Source of the DNA: Candidatus Harrisonbacteria bacterium | GTDB taxonomy: Bacteria > Patescibacteriota > Minisyncoccia > UBA6257 > 1-14-0-10-40-38 | Direction: 5' to 3' | Length of the DNA: 64,000 nucleotides | Assembly: GCA_023245035.1 (NCBI GenBank) | Contig: JAHFLD010000002.1 | Coordinates: 1,501-65,500, forward strand | In this document: positions 21,280 to 56,695 of the stretch, piece after piece | Numbering within the stretch: the stretch's first letter is position 1 | How the letters are laid out: each line of letters opens with the position of its first letter | The notes under the pieces: generated by a model | Told to the model about the DNA's origin: nothing | The model's database searches: none | Seen by the model: the letters and a program-made list of their open reading frames with translations, nothing else | Position numbers and translations under genes: made by a program

Positions 21280-21385
21280 CGCGAATTATTTTGTTGTTCG
21301 TTCCGTTACTCAGTCGGCGCACTTGGTTAAAGCGCGCCTTCCTCCTTACTCGCTCACTCCTTGTACTTCGCGAAAAATCTAGAAA
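21280..21385 (+). repeat. Conserved ~90-bp intergenic module, copy A (upstream of pilin genes)
   Basis: Aligns with 41725-41825 and 56598-56695: ...gtcgg-[hairpin]-cttcctcctt(t)actcg-ttactcct-gaact...aaaat. The hairpin sequence differs but base-pairing is preserved. Confidence 0.7.
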
Positions 21386-21662
21386 ATTCTTTGCTGTGTG
21401 TGTGTCGATTAGTAGATTATCTTTGCTTCTTGTCTTGTGTTTTATATTACAAACATAGGATTTGTTCATTATCTAAACCCTGTACCCTTCACCCTAGACC
21501 CTACCCAATGCCCTGTGAATATCTTAATTGCGGTGTTGGGTTTTTAGCGTGCTATAATTGGGTCAAATCTTTGAAAGGTCGGTTTCTCTTGTTTTGAGAA
21601 AGTTTAATTTCCAAAGATATAAAGATATTTTGATTATTCCGGTAAAAATTACTTAACTTACA

Positions 21663-22094
21663 ATGAATACAACATCCAAGAAAGGTTTTACGATTATTGA
21701 GCTTTTGGTGGTTATCGCCATCATTGGCCTTTTGGCTTCGGTGGTTTTGGTTGGTTTGGGTGGCGCGCGCCGATCAGGAAGAGATGCGAAAAGAATTGCT
21801 GATTTGAGGCAATTGCAGGTTGGTTTGGAGGCTTATTTTACCAAGAATGGAGTCTACCCAGCGACGCTTAGCGCTTTGACCACTGCTGGTGTCGGCGTGA
21901 CTGTAGTTCCTACTGATCCTGCTGGTGCGGCCTATGGCTATGGAGTAGCTAGCCCGGCAACTACCTATACTCTTAGTGCTCAACTTGAAGATGCGGGAAA
22001 CCAGGCGTTAAATAACGACATCGATGGTACTTCGAATGGTCTTAGCTGTGGAACGGCTGGTCCGACCGATCTCACGTATTGTGTTTCTCTCTAA
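21663..22094 (+). CDS. pilA: Type IV pilin (class III signal peptide G|FTIIELLVVIAIIGLLA)
   Basis: Prepilin leader KKGFTIIELLVVIAIIGLL. C-terminal Cys pair (CGTAG...YCV). Confidence 0.85.
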   Translation: MNTTSKKGFTIIELLVVIAIIGLLASVVLVGLGGARRSGRDAKRIADLRQLQVGLEAYFTKNGVYPATLSALTTAGVGVTVVPTDPAGAAYGYGVASPATTYTLSAQLEDAGNQALNNDIDGTSNGLSCGTAGPTDLTYCVSL

Positions 22095-22118
22095 GTTTTT
22101 ACTTGATTCCTTGGTCTG

Positions 22119-22580
22119 ATGTCTCTAATTTCTTACAGACGAGGTTTTACACTCATAGAACTACTGGTTGCCATTGCTATTGTTGGGCTTTTGGCTTCGG
22201 TAGTTCTTTTGGGTTTGGGAGGTGCGCGTCTCAAGGGTCGGGATGCGCGACGAATTGCCGATTTGCGGACGGTGCAAAATGCTTTGGAGTTTTATATCAA
22301 CCGGAATGGAGTCTATCCCAACAATACCGGCAACTGGATTGCGCTAACTACGGCTCTAAATAACGCCGGCGCGGGTCGTATTCCAACCGATCCGCTAAAT
22401 AGCGGTGTTAATGTTTATAGTTATTACACGAATTCAGGAACGCAGGATTTTTATGTCTTAAAGGCGATGCTGGAGGATATTTCTAATCCGGCTTTGCAAA
22501 ATGACACTGATGGAACTTTTGGTTCTCTAACTTGTGACGATACGGTGACCGCTGCCTATTGTGTTCGTGGTGGCTTATGA
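22119..22580 (+). CDS. pilA: Type IV pilin paralog
   Basis: RRGFTLIELLVAIAIVGLLASVVLLGLGGAR shares the GARxxGRDAxRIADLR motif with the upstream pilin. C-terminal Cys pair. Confidence 0.85.
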   Translation: MSLISYRRGFTLIELLVAIAIVGLLASVVLLGLGGARLKGRDARRIADLRTVQNALEFYINRNGVYPNNTGNWIALTTALNNAGAGRIPTDPLNSGVNVYSYYTNSGTQDFYVLKAMLEDISNPALQNDTDGTFGSLTCDDTVTAAYCVRGGL

Positions 22581-23467
22581 GCTTTTTTATTTTATTATTG
22601 CTTTTTTTTATCGGCTTGGCGGTTGGCAGTTTTTTAAACGTACTGGCGGTTCGATATGATCCCGAGCGGCCTATTTTTTCCGGGCCATCGCTCCTAGGTC
22701 GCTCTCACTGTCCGCATTGCGGTAAGACGCTTTCGGCTTTTGAACTTATTCCACTGGTCAGCTTTTTGTGGCAGAGGGGAAGATGTCGCGGTTGTCGGCA
22801 TTCAATTTCCAGTCAATATTTTTTGGTGGAGTTGTTTACGGGCATTTACTTTGTTGCGGTGCCTTTGTTTTTGACTTCTTTTTACGCGCTCACGCCAAAA
22901 CTGGCGCTTCATGGAGGTCCGTTTGTTTTTGCCGCTGGTTTATGGATTTTAGTCGGCCTGACCCTGCTTTTAATGTCGCTAATTGATTTGCGTCTGATGC
23001 TGATTCCGGATCAGCTGACGGTGTTTATCGGCCTTGTTGGTTTAGTTCAGGTTTTCTTTCTTAGACGTTACGGACTTTTTGGCTCGTTCGACGGGTCCTT
23101 TTTGGGAAGCGCCGCCGGTATATTTGCTTTTCGCGAGAATATTTTTTGGAATCATATTTTGGCGGCATTGGTTGGAGGAGGGGTATTCGGTTTGGTTTGG
23201 GCCTTGTCGCGGGGTCGCGGCATGGGTTTTGGCGACGTCAAGCTGGCGGCGGCGCTCGGTTTTCTTTTTGGCTGGCCGGATGTCTTATTGATCTTGATGC
23301 TGGCGGTCGTCATCGGCGCGGGTTTCGGGTTGGGACTTATTTTTTCTCGCAAAAAGGGTTTTAGGGATGGGATCCCGTTCGGGCCATTTTTGGCCCTCGG
23401 CGCGATGTTGGTGTTTTTCTGGGGTGAGACGATTTTTACCGGCTACCTGAAATTTTTCGGACTTTGA
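22577..23467 (+). CDS. pilD: Prepilin peptidase PilD (A24 family) with N-terminal zinc-binding CxxC...CxxC
   Basis: CPHCGKTLSAFELIPLVSFLWQRGRCRGCRHSIS. Multiple TM helices. Conserved GFGDVKL and GPFLALG motifs. The ATG at 22577 overlaps the pilin stop (ATGA). Confidence 0.85.
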   Translation: MSFFILLLLFFIGLAVGSFLNVLAVRYDPERPIFSGPSLLGRSHCPHCGKTLSAFELIPLVSFLWQRGRCRGCRHSISSQYFLVELFTGIYFVAVPLFLTSFYALTPKLALHGGPFVFAAGLWILVGLTLLLMSLIDLRLMLIPDQLTVFIGLVGLVQVFFLRRYGLFGSFDGSFLGSAAGIFAFRENIFWNHILAALVGGGVFGLVWALSRGRGMGFGDVKLAAALGFLFGWPDVLLILMLAVVIGAGFGLGLIFSRKKGFRDGIPFGPFLALGAMLVFFWGETIFTGYLKFFGL

Positions 23468-23605
23468 TCTAGAGTTTGCGAACCAGCCTTTGTTCTGGGA
23501 GCTGTGGCGGGCAGGTTTAAAAAATAGAAATGGCAAGACGGATGGGTGCAGACTTGTACGATGCTGTGTTTTGGTCTTTTGACCGGCGAGGATTATACTT
23601 AAGCT

Positions 23606-24229
23606 ATGCGTTTTTTGCCAAATAAATCCAGTTTTGGATTTTCTACAGTTGAGATTTTAGTGGTGGCGGCGGTTTTGGGAATGTTGATTACGATTTCCAT
23701 CCAATATTCGCGGCGAAGCGAACAGCAAATCGTCTTGTCCACCGCTCGGGCGGCTTTGGTGCAGACGATTTTACGCAGTAAGGCGCTGACGATTCAAACT
23801 TTTCGAGACGGCTTGCCGGTATGTGGTTACGGAGTGCGTTTTACTTCTACCGGCTACACGCTTTTTCGCGATTTTCCCGCTCCGCAACCGCCGCTCTCAA
23901 GCGGAGCGCCGCCGCCGATTGACTGCAGTGGTTCATTGGCTTTTGGGCCAAAGTATTCCGGTTCCGATGAGGATTTTTCGGTAACCGTGCTTGATCCAAG
24001 ATTGCAGATTCAGGTTTGTTTTCCGCCGGATGTGAGCGGTGGTTTTACCACTAATATCTTGTCGTGCCCCGGTGTTGAAGGCGAGGTGCTTTTTGTGCCG
24101 CCAGATCCAACGGTGTTTTTTGACCCCGGTTTGTCAGGGGATTACATGTCGTTGGTTCTTTCGCTGGTTGATGGAAGCGCGTCATCGCAAATCGATATCG
24201 GTTCCGGCGGTCAAGTTTCTATCCAGTAG
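23606..24229 (+). CDS. Minor pilin / pseudopilin-like protein (prepilin-type N-terminus)
   Basis: N-terminus FGFSTVEILVVAAVLGMLITISI resembles a class III signal peptide. Confidence 0.55.
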   Translation: MRFLPNKSSFGFSTVEILVVAAVLGMLITISIQYSRRSEQQIVLSTARAALVQTILRSKALTIQTFRDGLPVCGYGVRFTSTGYTLFRDFPAPQPPLSSGAPPPIDCSGSLAFGPKYSGSDEDFSVTVLDPRLQIQVCFPPDVSGGFTTNILSCPGVEGEVLFVPPDPTVFFDPGLSGDYMSLVLSLVDGSASSQIDIGSGGQVSIQ

Positions 24230-24235
24230 GCAGAT

Positions 24236-24817
24236 ATGACATTTTTCAAAAACAAATTAGGCGATCGGCGGGGGCAATTAATTGTGGAGTCTATGGTGGC
24301 TATCGCGGTTATGGTGACTGGCATCTTGGGTCTTTTTGTCTTGCTTTCTAAATCACTGGCCGCGACGAAGCTGGTTTCCAGCCAATATGTCGCCGTTCAT
24401 TTAGCCGGAGAGGGAATTGAATTGGTTAAAAATTTGCTGGATAAAAACGCCATTACGCGCCGAGCGACCGGCGGGGCTAATTCACTCACTCCCTGGAATC
24501 AAAATATGGGACCGGGAACTTTTGAGATGGATTTTAACGATGGGGCGCTGACGCCGGTTGTGCCCGGGCAGGCTCATTTGCTGTCGTTTGATGAACAAAG
24601 CGGCCACTATTTTTATGCTTCAAGCGCCGGTGGCACTGGTATTGATGAAGGGCAATCACTCACAACACCGTCAATCTACAAGCGAGAAATCGCCATTACT
24701 TGGTTGCCGGCGGCGAGCCCTAATTCTATGAGTGTTGTTTCCACGGTGTGGTGGTCAATTCGCGGTACTGATTATTCGGTGGTGTTGGAAGATGTCTTTA
24801 CCAATTGGCGTCCTTAA
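24236..24817 (+). CDS. Minor pilin-like protein
   Basis: GQLIVESMVAIAVMVTGILGLFVLL N-terminal helix. Confidence 0.5.
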   Translation: MTFFKNKLGDRRGQLIVESMVAIAVMVTGILGLFVLLSKSLAATKLVSSQYVAVHLAGEGIELVKNLLDKNAITRRATGGANSLTPWNQNMGPGTFEMDFNDGALTPVVPGQAHLLSFDEQSGHYFYASSAGGTGIDEGQSLTTPSIYKREIAITWLPAASPNSMSVVSTVWWSIRGTDYSVVLEDVFTNWRP

Positions 24818-24826
24818 ATTAAGACC

Positions 24827-25348
24827 ATGATTCTTTTTGCTAAAAATTCAGAGGCGCGTCGAGGATTTACCCTGGTTGAACTGATTGTGGCAGTCGGTAT
24901 TTTTGGCATGGTGATGGCTTTGGCAGTCGGTATTTTTGTGAAGCTGTTGCGAACTCAGCGGGCGGTAGTGGCCTTGATTGCCATGAATGATAACGCGAGC
25001 TTGGCGTTGGAGCAGGTGGCGCGCGAGATTCGTACTGGTTCTGGTTTTTCTTTGACGCAGGGAGGATTGAATTTTTTTAACGCGAAGGGGGAGGCGGTGA
25101 GATATGCGTTGGATCAAAATGCCATAGGACGATCCGTGGCTCAGGGTCCGATACGTCATATTACCGGCAACAATGTTATGGTTGATCGGCTGGATTTTAC
25201 CTTGACCGGATCCGCGCCGAATGGTTTGCCCGACGGGTTGCAACCCAGAATCGTCATCGTGCTTAGCGTGAGCGCGGTGGCTTCGGAGGCTGCTGGCGTC
25301 GTCAATCATTATCAAACCGCGGTCAGTCCGCGTTTACTGGATTCTTAG
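24827..25348 (+). CDS. Minor pilin / pseudopilin (prepilin-type cleavage/methylation N-terminus)
   Basis: RRGFTLVELIVAVGIFGMVMALAVGIF. Confidence 0.65.
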   Translation: MILFAKNSEARRGFTLVELIVAVGIFGMVMALAVGIFVKLLRTQRAVVALIAMNDNASLALEQVAREIRTGSGFSLTQGGLNFFNAKGEAVRYALDQNAIGRSVAQGPIRHITGNNVMVDRLDFTLTGSAPNGLPDGLQPRIVIVLSVSAVASEAAGVVNHYQTAVSPRLLDS

Positions 25349-25356
25349 TTTTTATT

Positions 25357-25827
25357 ATGAGACGACTTATTTTTAATAAATTTTTTAGACGCTCGGCGGA
25401 AAGCCGGGTCTCGGGGCAAAGTGGCCAGGTGCTTTTGTTCTCGGTTTTGATTCTCTCCGGAGCGCTTTTAAGCGTTACCGTTATCGCCGGATTGTTGACG
25501 CTTTATCAGTTGAGGCAGGCGGGGGACGTGGCGCGTTCGGCGCAGGCGATTTATGCCGCGGATGCCGGACTCGAGATGGAGTTTTATCGCTGGTTTAAAG
25601 ATTTTGATAATTGCCATGCTCCTTCGGCGGATCTTTTTGTGGTTCCCGGCTCTTATCCCACGACGCCGGCTTGCTTTACGATTGCGAATCCGCTAATAAA
25701 CGGCGCCCAGTTTGTGACTTTGATAGAGTATCGACCAGGCTCCGGTTCGTTGCCGGTTACGCTTGGGGTGATTCGCTCCACCGGACAATCAGCCAGATCA
25801 TTCCGCGCTTTTCGGGCGGATTTTTAG
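25357..25827 (+). CDS. Pilus-associated PilX-like hypothetical protein
   Basis: N-terminal TM helix (VLLFSVLILSGALLSVTVIAGLL). Last gene of the pilin block. Confidence 0.45.
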   Translation: MRRLIFNKFFRRSAESRVSGQSGQVLLFSVLILSGALLSVTVIAGLLTLYQLRQAGDVARSAQAIYAADAGLEMEFYRWFKDFDNCHAPSADLFVVPGSYPTTPACFTIANPLINGAQFVTLIEYRPGSGSLPVTLGVIRSTGQSARSFRAFRADF

Positions 25828-25953
25828 ATGATATTTAGCGCAAGGTTTTTGGCGTTTAGAATGGCCAAAGATGAGGCTTGTTGCTGAATTCGGCGTTTAC
25901 GGCATCCAGGCAGGGCCGTTTTTCGGCGTGGCTTTTGCTGATATACTTTCCCT

Positions 25954-28017
25954 ATGTCGTTTTCGACCACAAAAAAAGCCGCCGCGGAGCGAATCGCTGT
26001 TTTGCGCGAGGCCATCAATAAGTTTCGCTATCATTATCATGTTTTGAACGAATCGCTGATTTCCGATGAGGCTTTGGATACGCTCAAAAAAGAACTGTTT
26101 GATTTGGAGGGGCGTTTTCCAGAGCTCGTGACGCCGGATTCGCCGACTCAAAGAGTGGCGGGCGAGCCGCTCCAGAAGTTTAATAAGGTGAGCCACGAGG
26201 TGAGAATGATTTCGTTAAACGACGCTTTTTCGGAGGCCGATCTTCGCGCCTGGTTTGAGCGTCTGGCTAATTTTTTGGGACGCGAGCCAAAGCCTGAATT
26301 TTATTGCGAGCTTAAAATTGACGGCTTAGCGATTGAATTAATATATGAAAATGGCGTTTTGGCGCGGGCTTCCACTCGGGGCGATGGGCTGGTCGGCGAG
26401 GAGGTGACGCAAAACTTAAAAACGGTGGAGGCGATTCCACTCCGTTTGCGCGGTAATTATCCAAAAAAATTAACGGTTCGCGGAGAAGTTTTTTTGACCA
26501 GGCAGGAGTTTGAGCGCATTAACCGAGAACAAGTTGCTCGTGGTGAAAAGCCGTATGCCAATCCGCGAAATGTGGCGGCGGGGGCGGTGCGCCAGCTTGA
26601 TCCGAGGATTACCGCCTCGCGCCGTTTGGATTCTTTCGCTTATTCCATAGTAACCGACTTAGGGCAAGCGACACATGAAGAAGAGCATCGCTTATTGCAT
26701 TCGTTTGGTTTTAAGACAAACCAGCACAACGCGTTAGCCGGCTCGCTGGAGAAGGTGATTGCTTTTCGCAACCACTGGGAATCGCATCGGGAAAAATTGG
26801 CTTATGAGATTGACGGGGTGGTGGTTATTTTGAACGACAACGAACTTTTCGCGCGAGCGGGGATTATCGGCAAGTCGCCGCGAGCAGCCATGGCTTATAA
26901 GTTTGCTTCACGGGAAGCGACGACGATAGTTCGGGAAATTGTCGTTCAGGTTGGAAGAACCGGAGTTTTGACGCCAGTCGCGATTTTGGATCCGGTGAAT
27001 GTTGGCGGAGTTACCATTACTCATGCCACTTTGCATAATGCCGATGAGATTGAGCGATTAGGGTTGAAGCTTGGAGATACGGTGGTAGTAAGCCGAGCCG
27101 GAGATGTGATTCCGAAAATTATTAAGGTTTTGCCGGAATTGCGAACCGGCAAGGAGCATGGTTTTAAGATGCCGCAAGTTTGTCCGGTTGACGAGTCTCC
27201 GGTTTTGCGCGACGGGGCTTTATATCGTTGCGGTAATCCGGTTTGCGGAGGGCGACATCGCGAGGCTCTTTATCATTTTGTGGGACGATCCGCTTTTAAT
27301 ATTGAAGGCATGGGGCCGAAGATTATTGACCGTTTTCTGGATGAGGGCTTGGTGGCCGATGCCGCTGATATTTTTTCGTTGCGTGAGGGTGATATCGCGG
27401 CCTTGCCGAGATTTGGCGAGAAGTCCGCGGCTAATTTGATTAATGAAATCGCCGGACGCAAGCAGATCACCCTGACCCGTTTTTTGTTCGCGTTGGGCAT
27501 TCTTCATGTGGGCGAAGAAACGGCTAGGGTTTTGGCCGAATGGCTGGTATCCCGTTTGCCGAAGCGAGGCACGACTTTTAATCCGGAGGTCTTAGGGTCC
27601 TTGATGAAGGAAATCAGCGTGGATGATTTGCAAATGATTCCCGATGTTGGTCCGGCGGTGGCGCAGAGCATTGCTTTGTGGTTTACGCAGTCGCGAAACC
27701 AAACCCTGCTGAAGCGACTGGGAGGGGTTGGCGTGGTGTTTCAAGTTTCCTCGCCCAAAGAAAAAGGAGCGCTTACTGGGAAGTCATTTGTGATTACCGG
27801 TACCTTGTCTCAAATGAGCCGTCAAGAAGCCAAAGAGCGAATTCGGAATTTGGGAGGAGTGGTTCACGAGTCGGTTTCAAAGGCGACGAGCTATGTGGTT
27901 GTTGGCGCGGATCCAGGTTCAAAGGCTCGCAAGGCCGGGGAGTTGGGACTTACGATACTTTCCGAGGAGGAGCTGGGATCATTGCTTAACGTTGCCCAAA
28001 AGAAGAACGCGTCGTAA
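25954..28017 (+). CDS. ligA: NAD-dependent DNA ligase LigA
   Basis: KxDG adenylation motif (ELKIDGLAIEL). Zn finger CPVDESPVLRDGALYRCGNPVCGG. C-terminal BRCT. Confidence 0.92.
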   Translation: MSFSTTKKAAAERIAVLREAINKFRYHYHVLNESLISDEALDTLKKELFDLEGRFPELVTPDSPTQRVAGEPLQKFNKVSHEVRMISLNDAFSEADLRAWFERLANFLGREPKPEFYCELKIDGLAIELIYENGVLARASTRGDGLVGEEVTQNLKTVEAIPLRLRGNYPKKLTVRGEVFLTRQEFERINREQVARGEKPYANPRNVAAGAVRQLDPRITASRRLDSFAYSIVTDLGQATHEEEHRLLHSFGFKTNQHNALAGSLEKVIAFRNHWESHREKLAYEIDGVVVILNDNELFARAGIIGKSPRAAMAYKFASREATTIVREIVVQVGRTGVLTPVAILDPVNVGGVTITHATLHNADEIERLGLKLGDTVVVSRAGDVIPKIIKVLPELRTGKEHGFKMPQVCPVDESPVLRDGALYRCGNPVCGGRHREALYHFVGRSAFNIEGMGPKIIDRFLDEGLVADAADIFSLREGDIAALPRFGEKSAANLINEIAGRKQITLTRFLFALGILHVGEETARVLAEWLVSRLPKRGTTFNPEVLGSLMKEISVDDLQMIPDVGPAVAQSIALWFTQSRNQTLLKRLGGVGVVFQVSSPKEKGALTGKSFVITGTLSQMSRQEAKERIRNLGGVVHESVSKATSYVVVGADPGSKARKAGELGLTILSEEELGSLLNVAQKKNAS

Positions 28018-28028
28018 GATGTTAGAGT

Positions 28029-28661: not shown

Positions 28662-28666
28662 TTCTT

Positions 28667-28960: not shown

Positions 28961-29005
28961 GCTACGGATTTACGAACAGAGCGAGTGTAAAAAAATAGGG
29001 ATTCT

Positions 29006-31706: not shown

Positions 31707-31765
31707 GGGTTTTGTCTTTAGCTTCTAAATATTTTGCCTTTTTTGGGCGCGGACGACCGGATTTT

Positions 31766-35655: not shown

Positions 35656-35656
35656 C

Positions 35657-35801
35657 AAAAAGAAAATTGGGTAGCTTGTCTACCCGGTTTTCTTTTTAAT
35701 GTTTTGAGGCAGGGATCGAACGGGAAAGGGGTCGGGAAACGGTAGTTTCCCGTGGTGGAAATATTAAAACCGCATGGTTTTAAAAGCGAAGCGCGTGAGA
35801 T
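35657..35801 (+). mobile_element. Structured ~145-bp insertion downstream of the CAT tRNA (family copy 2), flanked by a 16-bp duplication of the tRNA 3' end
   Basis: tccctgccgtcggcac occurs at 35641-35656 and again at 35802-35817, the second copy followed by cca. Between them lie a terminator hairpin, the reverse-complement of the tRNA T-arm (ggcagggatcgaac), and the core aaggggtcgggaaacggtagtttcccgtggtggaa...aaaaccgcatggtttt, which has two hairpins. Confidence 0.7.
35669..35698 (+). terminator. Rho-independent terminator after the tRNA (gggtagcttgtctaccc + T-run)
   Basis: Perfect 6-bp GC-rich stem followed by ggttttcttttt. Confidence 0.7.
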
Positions 35802-36993: not shown

Positions 36994-37071
36994 TCGGTGG
37001 TTCGCGTGTGCCCGCTTTCGTAGCGGGCGCTTTTTTTGCTTTTTTATGATAGTCTTTTCCTGCGGATTAGA

Positions 37072-41138: not shown

Positions 41139-41705
41139 ATGGATTCATCCTCAAAACAAAAACTTTCCGCAGGAAACAACGAGCGCCATTGGTACGCGAT
41201 TCATACCTATTCCGGCTACGAGGACGCGGTGGTGCGTTACTTGCGCCAGCGCGTGGATTCGCTGGGCATGAACGACAAGATTTTTAACATCATTGTGCCT
41301 TTGGAGAAAAAGGTAAAGATTAAAAACGGCAAGCGTCGCGAGGTTTCCGAGAAAATTTATCCCGGATATGTTTTAGTAGACATGGCCTTGACCGACGATT
41401 CTTGGTACGTGGTGCGCAATACGCCAAGGGTGACCGGTTTTGTTGGGTCTGATAGCACGACACCAGTTCCGCTTTCCAAGTCGGAGATAGACCTTCTGAT
41501 GTCTCGCATGGGCAATCAAGAGACGAAGTTTAAGATTGATCTTCAGGTTGGCGAGTCGGTTAAGATTACCGATGGGCCGTTTAAGGATTATGACGCCAAG
41601 GTTTCGGAAGTTGACGAGGAGAAGGGCAAGGTGAAGGTGTTGGTGCCGATTTTTGGGCGCGACACGGTGGTGGAGTTAGACTCACTTCAAGTCCAGAAGC
41701 TCTAA
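41139..41705 (+). CDS. nusG: Transcription termination/antitermination factor NusG
   Basis: NGN domain WYAIHTYSGYEDAV. C-terminal KOW (GESVKITDGPFKDYDAKV). Confidence 0.9.
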   Translation: MDSSSKQKLSAGNNERHWYAIHTYSGYEDAVVRYLRQRVDSLGMNDKIFNIIVPLEKKVKIKNGKRREVSEKIYPGYVLVDMALTDDSWYVVRNTPRVTGFVGSDSTTPVPLSKSEIDLLMSRMGNQETKFKIDLQVGESVKITDGPFKDYDAKVSEVDEEKGKVKVLVPIFGRDTVVELDSLQVQKL

Positions 41706-41724
41706 GGCGCCCTATCTTTTCTTC

Positions 41725-41825
41725 GCATTTCGTTGTCGTAACCTGCGTCAGTCGGTCGCGGTACTGTGACTTAAGTACCGCTTCCTCCTTTACTCGGTTA
41801 CTCCTAGAACTGCAAAGAAAATACA
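41725..41825 (+). repeat. Conserved ~90-bp intergenic module, copy B (between nusG and rplK)
   Basis: ttcgttgtcgtaacctgcgtcagtcggtcgcggtactgtgacttaagtaccgcttcctcctttactcggttactcctagaactgcaaagaaaatac. Aligns with copies A and C. Confidence 0.75.
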
Positions 41826-41976
41826 CGGGCGGTGTGGGGCGTTGCAAGTTCATTAGTTCTGTCACATATTTTGTTTAGCGAGTTGGAAATTGTAGCTGTC
41901 TTGTTTTTTGCTCGTATTTGTTGGAGTTTGCATTTTTACCCTAAACCCTATAAGCTAATCGCTAAACGCTATTTAT

Positions 41977-42399
41977 ATGGCCAAACCAATCAAAACCGTA
42001 TTAAAACTTCAGCTGGATGCGGGCAAGGCGAATCCCGCGCCGCCAGTCGGAACAGCTTTGGGACCTCACGGCATTAATATCGCCGATTTTTGCAAGAAAT
42101 TTAACGAAGCTACCAAGGACATGATGGGGGATGTGGTTCCGGCGGAAATCACGATTTTCGAGGACCGCACTTTTACTTTTAAGCTCAAAACTCCTCCGGC
42201 GTCTTCGCTTTTAAAAAAGGCGGCGGGAATCGAGAAGGGATCTGGTGAGCCAAACAAGAAAAAAGTGGGAACAGTGACTAAGGCTCAAGTTCGGGAGATT
42301 GCGGAGAAAAAAATGATAGATTTGAATACGACCAACTTGGAGGCGGCGGAGAAGATTATCGCCGGCACGGCGAGAAACATGGGGATCGAAGTTAAATAG
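41977..42399 (+). CDS. rplK: 50S ribosomal protein L11
   Basis: [34 protein letters not shown]. 140 aa. Confidence 0.93.
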
Positions 42400-42571
42400 A
42401 CCCCCATGTTTCTGTGAAGGGGTCGGGAAACGGTAGTTTCCCGTGGCGGAATTATTCAAACCGAGGGGTTTGAAGGAGGAGTGAAGCGACGACGAAACAT
42501 GGGTCTAAACGTTACCGAGTAACGTCGCCCGATCTTTGCTAGGCAAAGATTTAGGGATCGAAGTTAAATAG
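42400..42571 (+). mobile_element. Structured insertion downstream of rplK (family copy 3), with a duplicated rplK 3' end and a 31-nt core identical to copy 2
   Basis: The rplK end agaaacatgggg is followed by its reverse complement ccccatgtttct (42402-42413). The core aaggggtcgggaaacggtagtttcccgtggcgga...caaaccgaggggtttg follows. Direct copies of the rplK end then recur as gaaacatggg (42494-42503) and gggatcgaagttaaatag (42553-42570). rplA does not follow. Confidence 0.65.
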
Positions 42572-42575
42572 GCTC

Positions 42576-42972: not shown

Positions 42973-43923
42973 TTGGCTATGATCCATAAAAACTTTTGGC
43001 ATTATTTTGGGGTTTTGATGGCGATTATTGTGGTTAATGTGGGGTTTCTTAATTTTTCAACCAGTAAGATTGCCAGCGAGGTTGATACCTTGTCGAGTGT
43101 AATTACATCTACCGGTTCTTCGCCAACAGCGGCGGCTCCGGCCGAAGAAGTCGGTGGAACTTCGGGTGGCGGGTCTTCTCTAACTCAAAGAATTTGCGTT
43201 GACGATCCAAGTCCGGAAAATGACGGAATGAAGCCGGAGTTCGGTAAGGATGGCAAGATAGCCGGCGCCACTTATTCTTTAGAGTTCCAAAATGGAATAC
43301 CAGCCGATCATCGCAATCCAAATGGGACTCCTTTTACAATTGGTCAATATATTGCCGGGGTTAGTGTGTTTGGCGTTGACAGAAGTGAAGCGGGGGGTCT
43401 GGCCGATAGTGATTATAGCTATGACAACAACGATTCGGCTAAATGTGATGGAGTGCAATTAGATAAGGGTCGTCTCTTTAGTCCATCTTCCTACTATGGT
43501 GGTGTCGCTGGCAAGGTAAATGGCAAACCTTTTAGAGCTACCCTTTCCGTTGGTGTTGACCAGGGCAGAGATTGCAAAGAGTTAGGGCCCATTACAGCGG
43601 CAGAAAGCAAGCCGGTAAATACGAGTGGGAGTGCGAATCCAGTACTTAATCCAAATTCTTCGGCGGTAGTAGTTACCGAACAGGGTGGATCTTCCGGACA
43701 GCAGGGTGCGGTTATTAGCTCTGAATCCGGGGCGGTGGTATTGGAATATTTCTGCGGTTCAGATAATCACATCAAGGCGAAATACGTGGCCAAGGTAAAT
43801 AAGAGCGTTAATAAGAGAAAATATGCCCCAACTTTTCCCGCGAGTTCGGGCTTGAACAATCTGCTTAGTGATTTTGGATGGGGTCGGTTATTGGGTAGTT
43901 ATGCTTTTGGTTTTAAGGATTAA
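42973..43923 (+). CDS. Hypothetical secreted/membrane-anchored protein
   Basis: N-terminal TM/signal helix FGVLMAIIVVNVGFLNF. Paralogous N-terminus to the next gene. Confidence 0.55.
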   Translation: MAMIHKNFWHYFGVLMAIIVVNVGFLNFSTSKIASEVDTLSSVITSTGSSPTAAAPAEEVGGTSGGGSSLTQRICVDDPSPENDGMKPEFGKDGKIAGATYSLEFQNGIPADHRNPNGTPFTIGQYIAGVSVFGVDRSEAGGLADSDYSYDNNDSAKCDGVQLDKGRLFSPSSYYGGVAGKVNGKPFRATLSVGVDQGRDCKELGPITAAESKPVNTSGSANPVLNPNSSAVVVTEQGGSSGQQGAVISSESGAVVLEYFCGSDNHIKAKYVAKVNKSVNKRKYAPTFPASSGLNNLLSDFGWGRLLGSYAFGFKD

Positions 43924-43946
43924 ATTCTTTTTGTTCGGTTTTTTTT

Positions 43947-44654
43947 ATGATCCATTCCAGATTTTTAATCTTTTTTAGTATTTTGCTGGGAATTGTGGTT
44001 TTGAATGTTGTTAGTCTTAACATTTTGGTTGATAAAGTGGCGATGCGAGTGAGTGAGGTTAAAAGCGAAGTTTCTTTGGCAAGTGCCAGTTCGGCAGTGT
44101 CTGGACAGGTAGTTAGATTTTGTGCCGATACGGATCATGCGATTGATTACGCGGTGTCGGGGGCGACGATGGAGGTCAGCATTCCGAGTCAAGGAATTTT
44201 TGGCGGGGCGAGTTATCCAAGAAATCCAACTCGGGTAACCGATGCCTTATCGTTGATTCGCGCCGGTCAGCCGACGGTTAGCAATCCCACCAATATTGGC
44301 CCTTGTACGCAGGCTGGCGGCTATTTTACCGATTCAGCCGGGAGGAGGCAGAGTTTTTATTTTCAGCTGTGCCGAGATCAGGGAATTAATACCGGATCTG
44401 GTTCGGTTAAACCCGGCGAGCCGCCGATTCAGGGTTCTGGAATTAAACGCCTTACGGAATTTTATTGCAGTCGTAATTCTTTGACTTCCGTTGATAAAAC
44501 GGTGCCAAACTTCGCGAGCGCAAAAGTGCCTTTGTTCTTTGGTTTTTTTGGGCGATTGGCTGATGCTTTGGGAATTACCTATGCCAATCCGCCGGTGGCT
44601 TCCGGCAATTTGACGACGCAGTGGTTTGTGAATGCCGATCACGAGACGCAGTAG
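43947..44654 (+). CDS. Hypothetical secreted/membrane-anchored protein (paralog of upstream gene)
   Basis: MIHSRFLIFFSILLGIVVLNVVSLNILVDKV parallels MIHKNFWHYFGVLMAIIVVNVGFLNFSTSKI. Cys-containing extracellular domain. Confidence 0.55.
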   Translation: MIHSRFLIFFSILLGIVVLNVVSLNILVDKVAMRVSEVKSEVSLASASSAVSGQVVRFCADTDHAIDYAVSGATMEVSIPSQGIFGGASYPRNPTRVTDALSLIRAGQPTVSNPTNIGPCTQAGGYFTDSAGRRQSFYFQLCRDQGINTGSGSVKPGEPPIQGSGIKRLTEFYCSRNSLTSVDKTVPNFASAKVPLFFGFFGRLADALGITYANPPVASGNLTTQWFVNADHETQ

Positions 44655-46204: not shown

Positions 46205-46298
46205 AGGGTTTTGATTTGTATTTGACGTTTTAAGCTTTAATCTGTTATGGTGTTTAAAGTTCTTTGATCTATCTGGAGAGTTTTTTTAGGAGATTCAG

Positions 46299-46742: not shown

Positions 46743-46820
46743 GATCTTCTGGCTTAAGTAGTTTTCGGCTTGCCTTTGGCAGGCCGTTTTTTTAACTGAC
46801 GGAGAGAGACGGATTAGAAC

Positions 46821-48563: not shown

Positions 48564-48719
48564 GTAATTATATTCCGCTCTCTAACAGTCATCTGCTTTG
48601 TTGCGTCCTTCGATCCTCCCTCACAGTACCAAAATGGTACAGCTCGGTTCGGTACTTGGACGCGCCTCGCATCTGAATTGTTATAGAGCGGAATTATTTT
48701 TAATTGCTTATTTCATTTA

Positions 48720-51700: not shown

Positions 51701-51887
51701 TGGGTTTGATGCCGCTCGCGCTGGCTTTTTTGTAGAACTCAACGGCGGCGTAAAGATTGCCGTGATCGGTGACGGCGAGCGAGGTCATGCCGAGTTCTTT
51801 GGCTCGCTCCACCAGTTCCGGAATTTTTGGCAGGCCGTCGAGTAGAGAATAATGACTATGTGTATGAAGATGAACAAAATTTTCCAT
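48720..51887 (-). CDS. dnaE: DNA polymerase III alpha subunit
   Basis: N-terminal PHP domain HLHTHSHYSLLDGL. Pol III core motifs. 1055 aa. Confidence 0.93.
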   Translation of the reverse strand: MENFVHLHTHSHYSLLDGLPKIPELVERAKELGMTSLAVTDHGNLYAAVEFYKKASASGIKPILGVEAYIAPGSRFEKSLNGGEKYYHLILLAKNETGWKNLLKLITASYLEGFYYKPRMDKELLRAHHEGLIALSACLAGEVSRHLMANRKDEAAKSALEYQSIFGPENFYLEIGHHPGIKETIQVKEDLIALSRQTGIPLVATQDIHYLKKDDAYYHDILLAVQTGNKLDDPDRLTLKNDDFSMRSPEEMAELFKETPEAVSNTAKIAEACSVKLELDKIRIPKFNTPEGYTATTYLKKLLEDRLKWRYPDPSAEVISRIEFEKGVIERMGFADYFLIVQDFINWAKNRGIVVGPGRGSAAGSIVSYILGITNLDPIAYDLIFERFLNPDRIQMPDIDVDITDARRDEVMGYLKETYGEDHVANIITFGTMAARAAVRDVGRALGISYSFCDQIAKLIPFVQSVKTGLEGAIKEVRELHELYENNPDAKKILDAAMHLEGVARHASVHACGTVISSEPLVNFLPLQRAPQDDNVIVSQFEMHAVESLGLLKIDLLGLRNLTIIENTLRLVRSVKGEEIDINRIPLGDKPTFLMLQRGETSGVFQFESSGMTRYLKELKPTEIEDLIAMVALYRPGPMELIPEYIARKHGKKTITYLHPKLEPVLNKTYGIMIYQEQLMNGARTLANFTLSEADVLRKAVGKKIRKLLLEQKEKLINGCIKNGIPESTANEFWALVEPFDRYGFNRSHAACYAMIAYQTAYLRAHYPVEFMTSLLNAESKDIDRITYLVAEAKKQHIEILAPDINRSDADFTPEGDKIRFGLAAIKNVGQKIVEAMIEERNRAGDFVDLPSFLSRVQHKDLNKKSLESLIKCGALDSLGVERAAALANMDDILKFASAYKKQANQNQMGLFGASTSKQALQLKPAEPAPSAQKLIWEKELLGLYVSDHPLNQHREKFEKIKAKPIKDALLTPNRRSVITGGIITSVQHIVTKTGKAMAFAKIQDFWNTMEVIVFPEKLDETRKVWEENKVILVAGKMSTRDGETKLICDSVREV

Positions 51888-52206
51888 GGTATTTCCTCGA
51901 ATTAGACGAGCGATCTACGGCGTTGCCGCCTCCGTTCCTGGTCACTGTATCTTGCTAGATACAGCTTCGGCGGATACTCGGCGGCGCCTTGTATCTCATC
52001 CCGCCTAATTCGAGGAGTGCTTAAAATTATTTTTTTATTATTCTTTGCCGGTTAATTATCTTGCCTTATTATACTTCGTAGCTAGCGGAAAAGACATCAG
52101 TTGACACTATTTATATTTCGTGTATAATTGGGTTAATCCATCTTTGGTGGAGGCTGGCTTCTCGGCAGTTCCGGGAAGGTGTTCTTTGAAAAGCGAGGAG
52201 ATTGTC

Positions 52207-52833
52207 ATGGCGGGAATACCTGTCGCTGGCGATCTGTACCACCGTCTCGACGGCAAGCTTTTTGAGATCAAGCGACAACTTCGTCAACCTGGCGGGTATC
52301 CGTTTGATCCTCGGGATCTTGATGTGGCGCTTCAGCGGGTGATTGAGGGAATGTTTGGAGTAGCCGGAGCAGATGGATTTTATCCAGTTACTCTCAACTA
52401 CGATCTTCCATTTGGCGAGATGGTTCAGGCGGGAAGATTTGACTGGGTGTCTGATCTTGTGAACAGGAGAAGCTTTCCGATTATTGGCCGTGGAACGGAG
52501 GAGGTTCGCCTTGAACTTTTTCATTGCAACTCCGCTCTCTCCATCCGAGGTGCTAGGAGTAAGATTGCGGAACGTGGCTTGATTTGCGCGCGGATTGAAC
52601 ACCTGCTGGCTTTTGCCGCCGCCTATCCAGATGTTCAGTCTAGGTTTCCGGTGATCGCTCTAGATTCCATCTCGCCGGAAGTTGATGCGTGGCATGTGCC
52701 TCTTCTTGGCAGGGATCATCAAGGGCGTACCTTGAGCACGCAAACCTACCTCACTGATTCTGATGAGCTTTGCCCCGGAAGGTTCCGTTTTCTGGCCTAC
52801 CAAATGCCGGCTGTTGCCAAGGGATGGTATTGA
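52207..52833 (+). CDS. Hypothetical protein
   Basis: GAGGAG RBS before ATG 52207. No recognised motif. The minus-strand ORF 52111-52602 is judged antisense noise. Confidence 0.5.
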   Translation: MAGIPVAGDLYHRLDGKLFEIKRQLRQPGGYPFDPRDLDVALQRVIEGMFGVAGADGFYPVTLNYDLPFGEMVQAGRFDWVSDLVNRRSFPIIGRGTEEVRLELFHCNSALSIRGARSKIAERGLICARIEHLLAFAAAYPDVQSRFPVIALDSISPEVDAWHVPLLGRDHQGRTLSTQTYLTDSDELCPGRFRFLAYQMPAVAKGWY

Positions 52834-52969
52834 CCGATAGTTTAGTTCGCTCGCCCCCGACTTGTCTGTCTCTGGCAGATTGCATCGGGGGTGTTTTTTT
52901 ATCTTTATAATCGCGAGTGTAGGTGGTTGACCATTTTTTGGGCCTGCGTTAGTATGGAGAAACTAAATT

Positions 52970-53125
52970 ATGGGAGGCGTACCAGTAAAACATCATTCAA
53001 AATCCAAGGTTGGCCGGCGGCGGTCGCATTTGGCGTTGAAGCCACTCAAACTCATGGTTTGTCCAAAGTGCAAGGCTCCGCGGGTTCCGCATCGAGCCTG
53101 TGCCAGTTGTGGCGTTTATAAGTAA
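52970..53125 (+). CDS. rpmF: 50S ribosomal protein L32 (below the ORF-track length cut-off)
   Basis: Translation MGGVPVKHHSKSKVGRRRSHLALKPLKLMVCPKCKAPRVPHRACASCGVYK has the L32 signature (KRRxSH, CPxC...CxxCG). GGAG lies 10 nt upstream. The track ORF 52891-53121 is in another frame and rejected. Confidence 0.85.
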   Translation: MGGVPVKHHSKSKVGRRRSHLALKPLKLMVCPKCKAPRVPHRACASCGVYK

Positions 53126-53203
53126 CAGGAGTTTTTGGTCGGATTGTGGTATTATTTTTCTGATGGTTGATTTGTCGGCACGTTCGTTTTTTTAGTCGCT
53201 TGT

Positions 53204-53674
53204 ATGGCAACTCGACAACTCGCTCGCTCGGTCGTTTTACAGTCCCTCTACGAATGGGATTTTTATGGTCGCAAAAGCGATTTAGTTTCTTTTTTAGAGA
53301 GAAATCTGGCCGAGTTTGCCCCGGGTCTCGACGAGCCGCAGTTTGCCCGAGATTTGGCTAATGGGGTTGTGGCCAGACAGGAAGAAATTGACATCATTAT
53401 CAGCCGAGCCGCGCCCGACTGGCCGCTTCAACAAATTTCCATCGTTGATCGCAACGCCTTGCGCATCGGTCTTTACGAGTTGCTGTTCGCCAATCCCGAA
53501 GAGGTTCCACCCAAGGTGGCGATTAACGAGGCGATTGAATTGGCTAAAAATTATGGCGGACCGAATTCGGGGAAGTTTATTAACGGGGTTTTGGGCACTG
53601 TTTATAAAGAAGTGGCCAAGGCCAAAGCCGATCAGTTTCCGACGAATAATCAAGATACCAAAGAAACATCCTGA
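53204..53674 (+). CDS. nusB: Transcription antitermination factor NusB
   Basis: [17 protein letters not shown]... All-helical ~150 aa. Sits upstream of rnc. Confidence 0.75.
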
Positions 53675-53679
53675 TATTT

Positions 53680-54366
53680 ATGCCCGACTTGGCTTTGTTT
53701 CAACGCAGTATCGGTTTTTCTTTTTCGAATAACGCGCTGTTGCGCGAGGCGTTGACACACCGCTCGTATTTGAATGAGCGTCCGGACTGGGATGTTCCGA
53801 ACAATGAGCGATTGGAATTTTTGGGCGACGCCGTGCTGGAGCTTGCGGTTACTGAGGAGCTGTTTCATCGCTTTCCGGATCAGCAAGAGGGGATTTTGAC
53901 GAGCTATCGCGCCGCGCTGGTCAATTATCAAATTTTGGCGAAAATTGCCGGCGAGATTCAACTGGAGGCATTTATTTTTTTGTCGCGCGGTGAGGCCAAG
54001 GATACCGGCAAGGCGCGAGAAGTTATTTTGGCCAATGCTTTTGAGGCTTTGGTTGGGGGGCTGTATTTGGATCGCGGTTATGCCGAGGTAAAAAAGTTTA
54101 TTTTGACGAGAGTAATGGTTCACTTGGCGGAAATTATCGCCGAGGGAAGTTTTAAAGACGCCAAAAGTCTATTACAAGAGAAGGCGCAGAGTGTTTTTAA
54201 ATTGACTCCGAAGTACAAGGTTTTGCGGGAAACCGGTCCGGATCACGACCGGATTTTTACCATGGGAGTTTATTTCGGCGAGAAGTTGATTGCTGAAGGA
54301 TTTGGTCCTTCCAAACAGGACGCGGAACTTGAGGCGGCCAAGAGGGCGCTTGAAGGAATGAATTGA
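53680..54366 (+). CDS. rnc: Ribonuclease III
   Basis: Signature ERLEFLGDAVLELAV. C-terminal dsRBD. Confidence 0.92.
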   Translation: MPDLALFQRSIGFSFSNNALLREALTHRSYLNERPDWDVPNNERLEFLGDAVLELAVTEELFHRFPDQQEGILTSYRAALVNYQILAKIAGEIQLEAFIFLSRGEAKDTGKAREVILANAFEALVGGLYLDRGYAEVKKFILTRVMVHLAEIIAEGSFKDAKSLLQEKAQSVFKLTPKYKVLRETGPDHDRIFTMGVYFGEKLIAEGFGPSKQDAELEAAKRALEGMN

Positions 54367-54442
54367 AGCGCAGGGAAGTCGGTCGTTTTTCCGGCGGAGA
54401 AGCGACATGATTCTCTTTGTCGTATATTATTTAAGAGATTAC

Positions 54443-56578
54443 ATGAAACTTAAACGACTGGAGCTCGCGGGTTTTAAATCTTTTGCCAACAAGACCGTTT
54501 TGGATTTTACCGGCGGGATTACCGCGGTTGTGGGTCCCAACGGTTCCGGCAAGTCCAACATCATTGACGCTTTTCGCTGGATTTTGGGCGCGCGCGAGGC
54601 TAAAAATGCCCGCAGTTTGCGAGCCGAGGATGTAATTTTTGCCGGTACTCAAACGGCCTCGCGGATGAGCTTGGCGCAAGTCGCCGTGACTTTTGATAAT
54701 GCCGACCATTTTTTTCCCGTGGATTTCGCGGAGGTTACGGTTCGGCGCAAGATCAGCCGTGACGGCGAGGCGCGCTTTTATTTAAATGACGCCGAAGTTC
54801 GGCTAAAGGATGTTTTGGATTTTTTTGCCAAGTCGCGTCTGGGTTCCAAGGGTTTTTCCATCATTAACCAAGGAGAGAGCGATCTTTTTGTGAGGTCTCT
54901 GCCCAGAGAGCGGCGGATGATGCTGGAGGAAATATTGGGTTTGCGCCAGTTTCATATTAAAAAACACGATGCGGAGTTAAAGCTTGCGACGACGCGCGCT
55001 AATTTGGATAAGGCCAAAGCTCTGATTGAAGAGATGTTGCCTCACGTGCGTTTGTTGCGGCGCCAGACGGCGAAGCTCGCGCGGTTGGATGAGCTTAAAA
55101 GCGAGCTCGACGAAGTCAGCAAGCAATATTTTGGCAAGCGGTTGTCGGCGGCCTTGCACGAGGTCGCGCAGTTTGAACCGCGTTTTAAGATTTTGGATGA
55201 AAAAATGGCCGAGGCCAGGATTGTTTTCAAGGAGGCCGAGGGAGTTTTGCGCAAAGCCGAGGGCTTGGCTTCGCCGCGCGCCGTCTCCGGCGTTGATCAC
55301 TCGCGCGATAGAAAATTTTTAGATGAAAAACTTTTGGCGATGGAGAAGGAACTGAGCCGGATTGAGGCGCAAATTGAGTTTGCCGGAGTCCAAAAATCCG
55401 GAAGGCTTGATGCCGATGAGCTGGCCGATTTTTTGCGTGATTTTAAGATGAACGCGGAAGAGATTTTGGCCGCGGAAGATTTGGATGACTTGCACGCCTA
55501 TATCTTGCAGGTAGTGAAGGAGGTGGAGGCTTTGCTGGAGGCGGAGCAGGAAGTTCGGGGAAGCAACACCGGCGAGCTTAAATCAAAACGGGATAAGATC
55601 GCTATTTCGATTGAGGAGCTAAAGCGGCAGATCGCGCGTTTGGCCGTGGAAGATGAGTCGCGAACAGAGCAACTTCAGACATTTCAAAAAACTTTCAAGG
55701 AGGCTTTTACTTCTTTTGAGGTGGCGAAGGACCGGACGATAGTTTTAGAGAGAGAGCGGCGCGAGTTGGAATTTGCCCGCGAGAGGGTGCTTGGCAAGAT
55801 GCGGGATATTGAGTCCGAGATTGAAACTTTTGGCGGGCGGATAGATGAGTTTAAAACTTTTGCTTTTGATCCGCATTTTGATTTGGTTTCTGGCGAGCGA
55901 CGATTGGCCAAGCTTCGGATGGAGCTTGCGGCGGCGGGCGAGGTTGATCCCAGCTTGGTTCGGGAGGCGGAAGAGGCGGAGAAGCGCTACTCTTTTTTGG
56001 AGCGCGAGTTTGGCGACTTGGAAAAGGCGGCGGGGGATTTGCAGGCCTTGATCGCCGAGCTGGACGCGCGGATTCAGACGCAATTTAACGATTCGCTTAC
56101 GGCGATAAATCGGGAGTTGCAACAATATTTTCACCTGTTGTTTGGCGGCGGCAAGGCGCGTTTGGTGCTGACCAATCGCGAGGCTTTATCGAGCGATGGC
56201 GAGTCCGCCGAAGGTTCGGCTGATTCCGCGGGATCCGCGGATTTGGGCGGACTGGAAGTTGAGCTTTCGATTCCGCGTAAAAAAATTCATGGCTTGGAGA
56301 TGCTTTCCGGCGGGGAGCGCAGTTTGGTTTCGCTCGCCGTTTTATTTGCTTTGATTTCGGTCAGCCCGCCGCCGTTTATAGTTTTGGACGAAGCCGATGC
56401 GGCGCTTGATGAGCAAAACAGCCGCAAGTTTGGCCAGCTAGTTAAAAATTTTTCGGCGGGAACGCAATTTTTGGTGGTAACTCACAATCGCGCGACGATG
56501 GAGTCGGCGGATGCGTTGTATGGGGTTACTATGAGAGAAGATGGAACGTCCCGAATCCTATCGCTGAAGCTCAACTAA
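54443..56578 (+). CDS. smc: Short SMC-family chromosome segregation ATPase (~712 aa)
   Basis: Walker A GPNGSGKSNIIDA. Long coiled coil. Signature LSGGERSLVSLAVLFAL. Walker B FIVLDEADAALD. Confidence 0.8.
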   Translation: MKLKRLELAGFKSFANKTVLDFTGGITAVVGPNGSGKSNIIDAFRWILGAREAKNARSLRAEDVIFAGTQTASRMSLAQVAVTFDNADHFFPVDFAEVTVRRKISRDGEARFYLNDAEVRLKDVLDFFAKSRLGSKGFSIINQGESDLFVRSLPRERRMMLEEILGLRQFHIKKHDAELKLATTRANLDKAKALIEEMLPHVRLLRRQTAKLARLDELKSELDEVSKQYFGKRLSAALHEVAQFEPRFKILDEKMAEARIVFKEAEGVLRKAEGLASPRAVSGVDHSRDRKFLDEKLLAMEKELSRIEAQIEFAGVQKSGRLDADELADFLRDFKMNAEEILAAEDLDDLHAYILQVVKEVEALLEAEQEVRGSNTGELKSKRDKIAISIEELKRQIARLAVEDESRTEQLQTFQKTFKEAFTSFEVAKDRTIVLERERRELEFARERVLGKMRDIESEIETFGGRIDEFKTFAFDPHFDLVSGERRLAKLRMELAAAGEVDPSLVREAEEAEKRYSFLEREFGDLEKAAGDLQALIAELDARIQTQFNDSLTAINRELQQYFHLLFGGGKARLVLTNREALSSDGESAEGSADSAGSADLGGLEVELSIPRKKIHGLEMLSGGERSLVSLAVLFALISVSPPPFIVLDEADAALDEQNSRKFGQLVKNFSAGTQFLVVTHNRATMESADALYGVTMREDGTSRILSLKLN

Positions 56579-56597
56579 GCAACTGGTCTTTTTTGAA

Positions 56598-56695
56598 TAT
56601 TTCTTTGTCGTAATCTCCGTCACTTGTCGCCGTACTTAGTAAAGTACGCCTTCGGCGTTTACTCGCTTACTCCTCGAACTATTCAAAAAATCTTG
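56598..56695 (+). repeat. Conserved ~90-bp intergenic module, copy C (between smc and rpsP)
   Basis: tttctttgtcgtaatctccgtcacttgtcgccgtacttagtaaagtacgccttcggcgtttactcgcttactcctcgaactattcaaaaaatct. Confidence 0.75.

Follow-up and report, generated by a model that had tools for sequence, protein, structure and literature searches.

An apparently lineage-restricted family of co-oriented long-hairpin repeats in intergenic spacers of a Candidatus Harrisonbacteria genome

A 64,000-nucleotide stretch of the genome of a Candidatus Harrisonbacteria bacterium (contig JAHFLD010000002.1, positions 1,501 to 65,500; hereinafter the window) carries six full copies of an intergenic element that folds into an imperfect hairpin of 122–139 nt, with 29–51 pairs forming a ~40-bp interrupted stem. 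Across ~72 kb of this genome and ~28 kb of that of a sister species (GCA_964367145.1), we find nine full copies over ~100 kb, or ~1 per 10 kb, and every copy found is intergenic. We interpret these as a lineage-specific family of dispersed and co-oriented long-hairpin intergenic repeats, akin in kind to the ERIC, Correia and RPE elements. The role that seems most plausible, which we propose tentatively, is that of a co-transcribed RNA hairpin by which the message upstream would obtain or keep its 3′ end.

Genomes of the candidate phyla radiation (CPR; Parcubacteria/Paceibacterota) are very small and little is known of the control of gene expression in them. Homologues of its L11 protein assign the present organism to the Parcubacteria/Paceibacterota. 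The present family, whose hosts are one small group of uncultured groundwater bacteria, offers a testable handle on post-transcriptional control or strand-specific DNA processes in uncultured bacteria, and the covariance model (CM) from this analysis is applicable to complete genomes of the lineage. Even if these are ordinary ERIC-like repeats, they warn annotators that such spacers are not promoter leaders.

Identification of the repeat family

The first-pass annotation of the window had singled out three stretches (A, B and C) as copies of a ~90-nt module with a small hairpin, lying upstream of pilin genes, rplK and rpsP. Their mutual similarity is borne out by an alignment with 75–81% column identity across ~100 nt, and a pattern count gives three exact matches of a 22-nt degenerate core, TTACTCGNTNACTCCTNGNACT, as against 0.01 expected. 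The ~90-nt module is thus real; the small hairpin is not the whole of it, the module being the conserved core of a 122–139-nt long hairpin. As the flanks of A, B and C are unrelated and the similarity ends inside ~130 nt, a larger segmental duplication, which would have undone the earlier proposal, is excluded. The further copies were recovered by complementary searches. An nhmmer profile of A, B and C detects copy D at 20990-21077 (E=1.5e-6), with weaker matches at 51925-51993 (copy E) and 13364-13405 (remnant F), while copy G was recognized as a full copy through comparison with D. Copy G had been flagged in the first-pass annotation as a weak fourth copy at 48640-48680, and proves to be a genuine, full-length, diverged member (leave-one-out nhmmer E=6e-7). 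A six-copy profile independently recovers copy H in another contig of the same organism (L016:5437-5537, E=2e-17), and two copies, C′ and E′, are present in the sister species; copies beyond the original three thus do exist. Run with its filters off, the covariance model reports exactly the six full window copies (A, B, C, D, E and G) and nothing else above noise; two 3′ remnants complete the window set. In leave-one-out tests, each of the nine copies is regained by a hidden Markov model (HMM) of the other eight with E-values between 6e-7 and 2e-21. Given these values, the core count and the independent copies at further loci, the probability that the similarity reflects chance or a larger segmental duplication is negligible.

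The copies and fragments, all on the + strand, are as follows:

Copy A, 21262-21391, +: core 21283-21385; CM score 80.6 bits; leave-one-out E=3.5e-12; apical stem GGCGCACTT/AAGCGCGCC, outer stem TTTTTCGCGAA/TTCGCGAAAAA; spacer between pilC and the major pilin gene, 3′ of copy D
Copy B, 41706-41843, +: core 41725-41830; CM score 92.6 bits; z=-3.45; begins at the first base past the nusG stop codon (TAA, 41703-41705) and ends 134 nt before the rplK ATG
Copy C, 56579-56701, +: core 56597-56698; CM score 104 bits; begins at the first base past the stop codon of an smc-like gene (TAA, 56576-56578), with rpsP on the other side
Copy D, 20970-21091, +: diverged, full; CM score 84.9 bits; z=-5.9; E=1.5e-6 with the three-sequence HMM; begins 4 nt past the pilC stop codon (TAG, 20963-20965); copy-specific 17-bp outer stem CATCCGCATTCGGCGCA/TGCGCACGAATGCGGATG
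Copy E, 51888-52021, +: diverged, full; CM score 82.3 bits; z=-5.0; leave-one-out E=4.5e-8; spacer between dnaE and a divergent gene of unknown function, adjoining the start codon of the minus-strand dnaE
Copy G, 48572-48694, +: diverged, full; CM score 79.2 bits; z=-6.5; leave-one-out E=5.6e-7; in the spacer of two minus-strand genes, thrS and dnaE, ending 8 nt from the thrS start codon
Copy H, L016:5418-5541, +: same organism, ~5 kb past the right edge of the window; between rplU and a gene of unknown function, directly 3′ of rplU and itself followed by a partial copy that lacks the hairpin
Copy C′, L019:9758-9880, +: sister species, smc–rpsP spacer; profile match 9779-9878
Copy E′, L019:5946-6043, +: sister species
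Partial copy, 21187-21268, +: between D and A; nhmmer match 21188-21213, E=0.44; duplicates D in its 3′ half (CTCCTCGCCCGCGCCTCAAACTGC ... GCGCACGAACGCGGATGTTTCGAG), interrupted by an insertion
Remnant F, 13362-13406, +: 3′ half of the module only, between two convergent gene ends; nhmmer E=0.0027

Copy D, the half copy and copy A share one spacer, from pilC to the gene for the major pilin, within a type IV pilus operon. More generally, truncated and tandem partial copies occur, and subfamilies are visible in the identity matrix of the copies. Copy B was found identical in contigs of two further samples (L005 and L006).

A covarying long hairpin with a conserved internal loop

The same long hairpin is the fold of each of the nine copies, at z-scores of -1.2 to -6.5. 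RNAalifold applied to the nine copies predicts three nested helices (P1, P2 and the apical P3), and extending each copy by ~22 nt revealed a further outer stem, P0, so that the layout from the base upward is P0, P1, P2 and P3, with an internal loop between P2 and P3. In the CM-based alignment, 89.7% of the cells are paired and double changes are seen at 15 of the 21 pairs, with 40 compensatory cells observed as compared to 12.4±2.7 in shuffles; sliding the 3′ partner by 1–3 columns as a control leaves only 24–42% pairing. Because this alignment is fitted to the model, it somewhat favors structure, and an uncorrected MAFFT alignment gave the same picture for P3. As the first-pass annotation had claimed, the apical hairpin varies in sequence among copies while its pairing is kept.

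The termini of the element are always paired and their sequence is largely copy-specific (TTTTTTGAATA, TTTTTCGCGAA, CATCCGCATTCGGCGCA, CCGCTCTCTAACA and CCTCGAATTAG). In A, B, C, H, C′ and E′, P0 combines the pairing of a T-run with an A-run and a copy-specific segment, whereas in D, G and E it is of wholly different sequence and spans 11–20 bp; the T-run/A-run, in six of the nine copies, is the only terminal feature shared. The P2–P3 internal loop measures ~14×14 nt, conserves its size and several of its bases, and is pyrimidine-rich on both sides on the + strand. A coding function was rejected on account of 1-nt indels between copies and stop codons in the + strand frame read through copy B.

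Position relative to genes, terminators and promoters

Five of the nine hairpins (B, C, C′, D and H) have their base 0–4 nt past the stop codon of the upstream + strand gene; those of E and G come within 0–8 nt of a minus-strand start codon. The spacer beyond the hairpins, on their other side, extends for 30–390 nt. Measured from the end of the module, the next start codon follows after 278 nt in A, 147 nt in B and 171 nt in C. The first-pass annotation had the module in sense orientation upstream of highly expressed genes, which holds for A, B and C and fails for E and G; copy G, on the + strand between two minus-strand genes, means that a same-strand downstream gene is not universal. The outer stem of copy E, CCTCGAATTAG/CTAATTCGAGG (51888-51900 and 52010-52021), includes GAGGA, the dnaE Shine-Dalgarno sequence, which lies on the minus strand 7 nt ahead of the ATG; were the region transcribed on that strand, the element could mask this ribosome-binding site.

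A terminator scanner predicted no intrinsic terminator in the module-bearing spacers; canonical ones are found behind several other genes of the window, e.g., at 13217-13243, 37008-37030, 46766-46786 and 58783-58802. The element itself was rejected as an intrinsic terminator, as on either strand the T-run comes before the hairpin and the A-run after it, and the two runs pair together. Predicted promoters, on the other hand, lie beyond the module on its 3′ side. That of rpsP, TTGCCT-N16-TATACT (56833-56871), stops 8 nt short of the ATG, which would leave the rpsP mRNA nearly leaderless, and is conserved in the sister species (L019, about 9962-10003). Copy E ends ~80 nt 5′ of a perfect sigma-70-type promoter, TTGACA-N16-TATAAT (52101-52128), and the pilin gene has a predicted extended -10 element, TGCTATAAT, upstream at 21550-21558. 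Overall, the distance from the module to the predicted promoter varies between ~80 and ~135 nt.

A motif that the first-pass annotation had reported as common to A and B, CTAAACCCTNTA, is indeed present at 21473 and 41941. It resembles a CCCTAAA repeat and occurs exactly twice (21473-21484 and 41941-41952), each time in a spacer that carries the module and close to a predicted promoter, that of the pilin gene or that of rplK.

Selection and distribution

The sister species shows protein identities to the present organism of 80% for SMC, 85% for S16 and 96% for L11. At the shared smc–rpsP site, copies C and C′ are 84–86% identical, as compared to 54% and 40% identity at four-fold degenerate sites of smc and rpsP, respectively, and apart from the rpsP promoter the spacer outside the element is unalignable. 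This copy is therefore under purifying selection. The differences between C and C′ include compensatory changes in P2 (A-T to G-C; T.C to C-G), P3 (C.C to C-G) and the outermost helix. E and E′, with an identity of only 59%, may not be orthologous.

Two spacers appear in different states across the relatives. In the sister species, a PDDEXK_3 gene occupies the nusG–rplK spacer and a small open reading frame (ORF) the thrS–dnaE spacer; as other genes fill both of these, there is no clean empty site there. The nusG–rplK spacer (41705-41977 in the window) houses copy B here and a PDDEXK_3 (PF13366) gene of 128–132 codons in the related loci L009 (9516-10001) and L012 (5347-5954); likewise, where copy G lies between thrS and dnaE, L009 has an AT-rich ORF of 112 aa. 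Both spacers are hot spots of turnover. The idea that B is a remnant of the relatives' PDDEXK_3 gene was dropped, no similarity between the two being visible.

No copy is present at the syntenic sites in the distant relatives L012 (L11 86% identical), L142 (S16 68%), L143 (SMC 53%) and L144 (SMC 47%); the single 20-bit match, inside dnaE, was treated as spurious. On this comparison, the family appears confined to one genus-level lineage. At the gathering thresholds of Rfam 15, the window yields five tRNAs only, and the best hit of a permissive Rfam scan of copy C has E=1.3. Exact-pattern scans of genome and metagenome contigs with the core returned chance matches only, in coding regions of Acinetobacter-like genes; a hairpin-centered pattern matched more than 120 loci in viral contigs, none of which matches the family HMM; and blastn against plasmid and phage records gave nothing similar. 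Strain variants of the L11 locus (P0002 and P0003) and the left edge of the window added no new spacer sequence. Literature searches on Parcubacteria, Patescibacteria and the CPR turned up no description of an interspersed structured repeat family.

Comparison with known repeat families

We file the elements as a new family within the interspersed palindromic intergenic repeats and structured intergenic RNA motifs. In its manner of working it would resemble the ERIC, Correia, REP or RPE elements, yet it departs from each of them in the traits by which they are defined. Like the present elements, ERIC (or IRU, ~127 bp) is a dispersed, non-coding, imperfect palindrome of ~125 nt that lies near gene ends and forms a long stem-loop. 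ERIC copies are co-transcribed with flanking genes, and their effect on the stability of the upstream mRNA depends on orientation and on ribosome access (PMC2229807), which is matched by the present hairpins that start 0–4 nt past a stop codon. However, there is no sequence similarity between the two, and the present family is co-oriented, belongs to one genus-level CPR lineage and has a large, symmetric and conserved internal loop, while its termini lack a conserved inverted repeat, TA or a consistent target-site duplication. Correia (NEMIS) elements of Neisseria, likewise small, intergenic and multi-copy, are transcribed into long hairpins that are RNase III targets and modulate neighboring mRNAs (PMC2229807). 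Their 24-bp conserved inverted repeats, TA duplications and IHF site are absent here, where much of the outer stem is copy-specific. Against the criteria for bacterial MITEs (PMC2229807), the elements are shorter than 200 bp, non-coding and multi-copy, and lack terminal inverted repeats of conserved sequence. At their ends there is no TA, and six of the nine copies are without a flanking direct repeat beyond chance, with G, E and E′ showing AT-rich flanking words of 6–8 nt under a null model that is lenient for AT-rich spacers. RPEs are lineage-specific repeats of similar size (105–146 bp) from a reduced genome, with predicted long stem-loops (PMC2229807); unlike the present copies, all of them intergenic, RPEs are also found as in-frame insertions within coding and RNA genes.

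The REP/BIME elements share with the present family their placement as intergenic palindromes at gene 3′ ends, where they stabilize the upstream mRNA. REPs are GC-rich sequences of 20–40 nt, often in inverted pairs and linked to RAYT transposases. The elements described here, on the contrary, span 122–139 nt and occur singly or as same-orientation tandems, and no RAYT- or transposase-like Pfam domain is found in the gene lists of the related loci. The attC sites of integrons, imperfect palindromes of 57–141 nt, conserve structure over sequence and are co-oriented at gene 3′ ends, where they are read as single-stranded DNA. Co-orientation and the gene 3′-end position are common to both, but neither strand of any copy contains the RYYYAAC/GTTRRRY boxes and the Pfam families given for genes of the related loci include no integrase; moreover, the copies lie ~10 kb apart beside core housekeeping genes (nusG, rplK, smc, rpsP, dnaE, thrS, rplU and pilC) whose synteny is conserved with distant relatives, and not in cassettes. 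The RNase III signals of phage T7, which are intercistronic stem/internal-loop/stem hairpins between separately needed messages, offer a comparison of mechanism only, being about half the size, not homologous, phage-borne and without a genomic repeat family.

Possible functions

The reading that we favor, though we would give it somewhat less than an even chance, is that the element is a 3′-UTR (untranslated region) or intercistronic RNA hairpin. Under this proposal, transcription of the gene on its 5′ side would run into the element, whose RNA, as the tail of that message, would adopt the ~40-bp interrupted stem. This stem would give the upstream mRNA its 3′ end or protect that end, either as a block to 3′ exonucleases or as a substrate for RNase III, and would thereby separate the upstream transcript from the next gene, itself with its own promoter. 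The conserved ~14×14-nt internal loop might serve as a platform for protein recognition. This view rests on the abutment of stop codons, the lack of canonical terminators in the spacers and the selection on pairing and loop bases, with the behavior of ERIC and Correia elements (PMC2229807) as precedent. A gene for RNase III is present in the window at 53680-54366, as assigned by synteny with L019. As to the acting strand, the main hairpins have 32 G.U pairs on the + strand and 15 on the - strand (p=0.02), a weak lean toward +.

Several observations weigh against this reading. The helix-internal G.U pairs are not significantly asymmetric (12 versus 7), the core helices hold 4 G.U and 5 A.C cells, and the minus-strand fold is the more stable one in all nine copies, probably by virtue of its purine-rich loops. 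Copy G is opposite in strand to both of its neighbors, and E and E′ follow no + strand gene, so that the + strand RNA of these three would belong to no mRNA. Conservation of the loop sequences is orientation-specific, something that a generic hairpin does not need. Finally, the sister species is without copies at the nusG–rplK and thrS–dnaE sites; hence, no individual copy is indispensable.

The main rival, which we consider less probable, is an element acting as DNA: a selfish, recombination- or replication-linked palindrome forming a single-stranded DNA hairpin on one replication strand, in the logic of IS200/IS605-type ends, attC sites or single-strand initiation signals. Its pairing would then be kept by the needs of the machinery or by intrastrand template switching, with any RNA effects incidental. 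All nine copies, including G despite its being antisense to both neighbors, lie on the strand that is G-rich throughout the window and the related loci (GC skew +0.10 to +0.18), presumably the leading strand. The truncated and tandem partial copies, the patchy presence between sister species, the subfamilies, the similar numbers of G.U and A.C cells in the core helices and the AT-rich direct words flanking G, E and E′ are also in keeping with such an origin. However, ~85% of the genes are on the + strand as well, so that G is the only copy that separates co-orientation with replication from that with transcription, and the strand bias rests on this one discriminating copy. Unlike neutral selfish DNA, C/C′ evolves far more slowly than synonymous sites; further, terminal sequences are not conserved, TA ends, attC R boxes and, in six of the nine copies, a consistent target-site duplication are lacking, and the Pfam listing of the genes called in the related loci includes no transposase or integrase domain. 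A variant that departs both from decayed mobile DNA and from a generic RNA hairpin, and which seems unlikely to us, is a host-selected, replication-strand-specific signal read as a single-stranded DNA hairpin, possibly a priming, recombination or chromosome-organization site with the 14×14 loop as its protein recognition site; its only support is again the nine-of-nine occurrence on the G-rich strand, with one copy antisense to both neighbors.

The first-pass annotation had instead offered a small RNA, a 5′ leader or a regulator-binding module close to the promoter, the last two as controls on the highly expressed gene downstream (pilin, rplK or rpsP). A, B, C and C′ do lie 123–280 nt upstream of pilin, L11 and S16 genes in sense orientation, and the 3′ A-tract could be an UP-like element where a -35 hexamer is directly next to it, as in C. 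The leader interpretation, however, is not supported, because the predicted promoters of the downstream genes, including the conserved one of rpsP, sit between the module and the gene; neither is a promoter-proximal operator, against which the variable module–promoter spacing argues. The putative promoter directly next to C has no conserved counterpart in C′; none of G, E, E′ and H precedes a gene known to be highly expressed; rplJ-rplL, the tRNA genes and secE-nusG are without a copy; and covariation of the stems suggests a nucleic acid that folds, not an operator in duplex DNA. We therefore consider a leader or operator improbable. A similarly low probability attaches to stable small RNAs, expressed from their own promoters or processed from 3′ UTRs, whose conserved, single-stranded and pyrimidine-rich loops would act in trans by pairing to purine-rich targets, for instance ribosome-binding sites. 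The conservation of unpaired segments would suit them, as would CCUCCUUU, which is found in the 3′ loop of A and B and resembles an anti-Shine-Dalgarno sequence; but as the other seven copies do not conserve this motif, we dropped it as an anti-Shine-Dalgarno mimic. In addition, the gap between stop codon and hairpin is too small for a promoter, no terminator follows the hairpin, and a trans-acting RNA would not usually occur at ~1 copy per 10 kb.

Other features of the window

Arrays of four TACGAAT heptamers in tandem, with a spacing of 8/10/8 nt, are found just 3′ of canonical terminators (11240-11272 and 13254-13286; also 13334 and 19702); the window has 14 matches as compared to 6.8 expected. 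Similar TGCGAAT/ATTCGCA arrays flank the PDDEXK_3 gene of the relative L012 (5360-5400 and 5790-5940). The TACGAAT arrays may represent a second intergenic motif family or a protein-binding array.

A different repeat of 58–70 nt is present in two copies that are 88% identical (35726-35783 and 42417-42474), with the pattern AAGGGGTCGGGAAACGGTAGTTTCCCGTGG.GGAA.TATT.AAACCG and two small hairpins; one follows tRNA-Met and the other rplK, and it has no match in Rfam. Downstream of rplK is a 574-nt spacer followed by two ORFs (316 and 235 aa; 42973-44654) with no Pfam match, and there is no recognizable rplA. A 2213-aa ORF (88-6729) shows extensive internal repeats, among them a 300-nt repeat that is 100% identical between 2668-2967 and 3925-4224. 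Finally, there are two tandem paralogous pilin genes (21663-22580) that are 71% identical over 177 nt; the first matches the ComP family of DNA-uptake-sequence receptors (PF16732) below threshold, with 21.8 bits versus a cut-off of 27.3.

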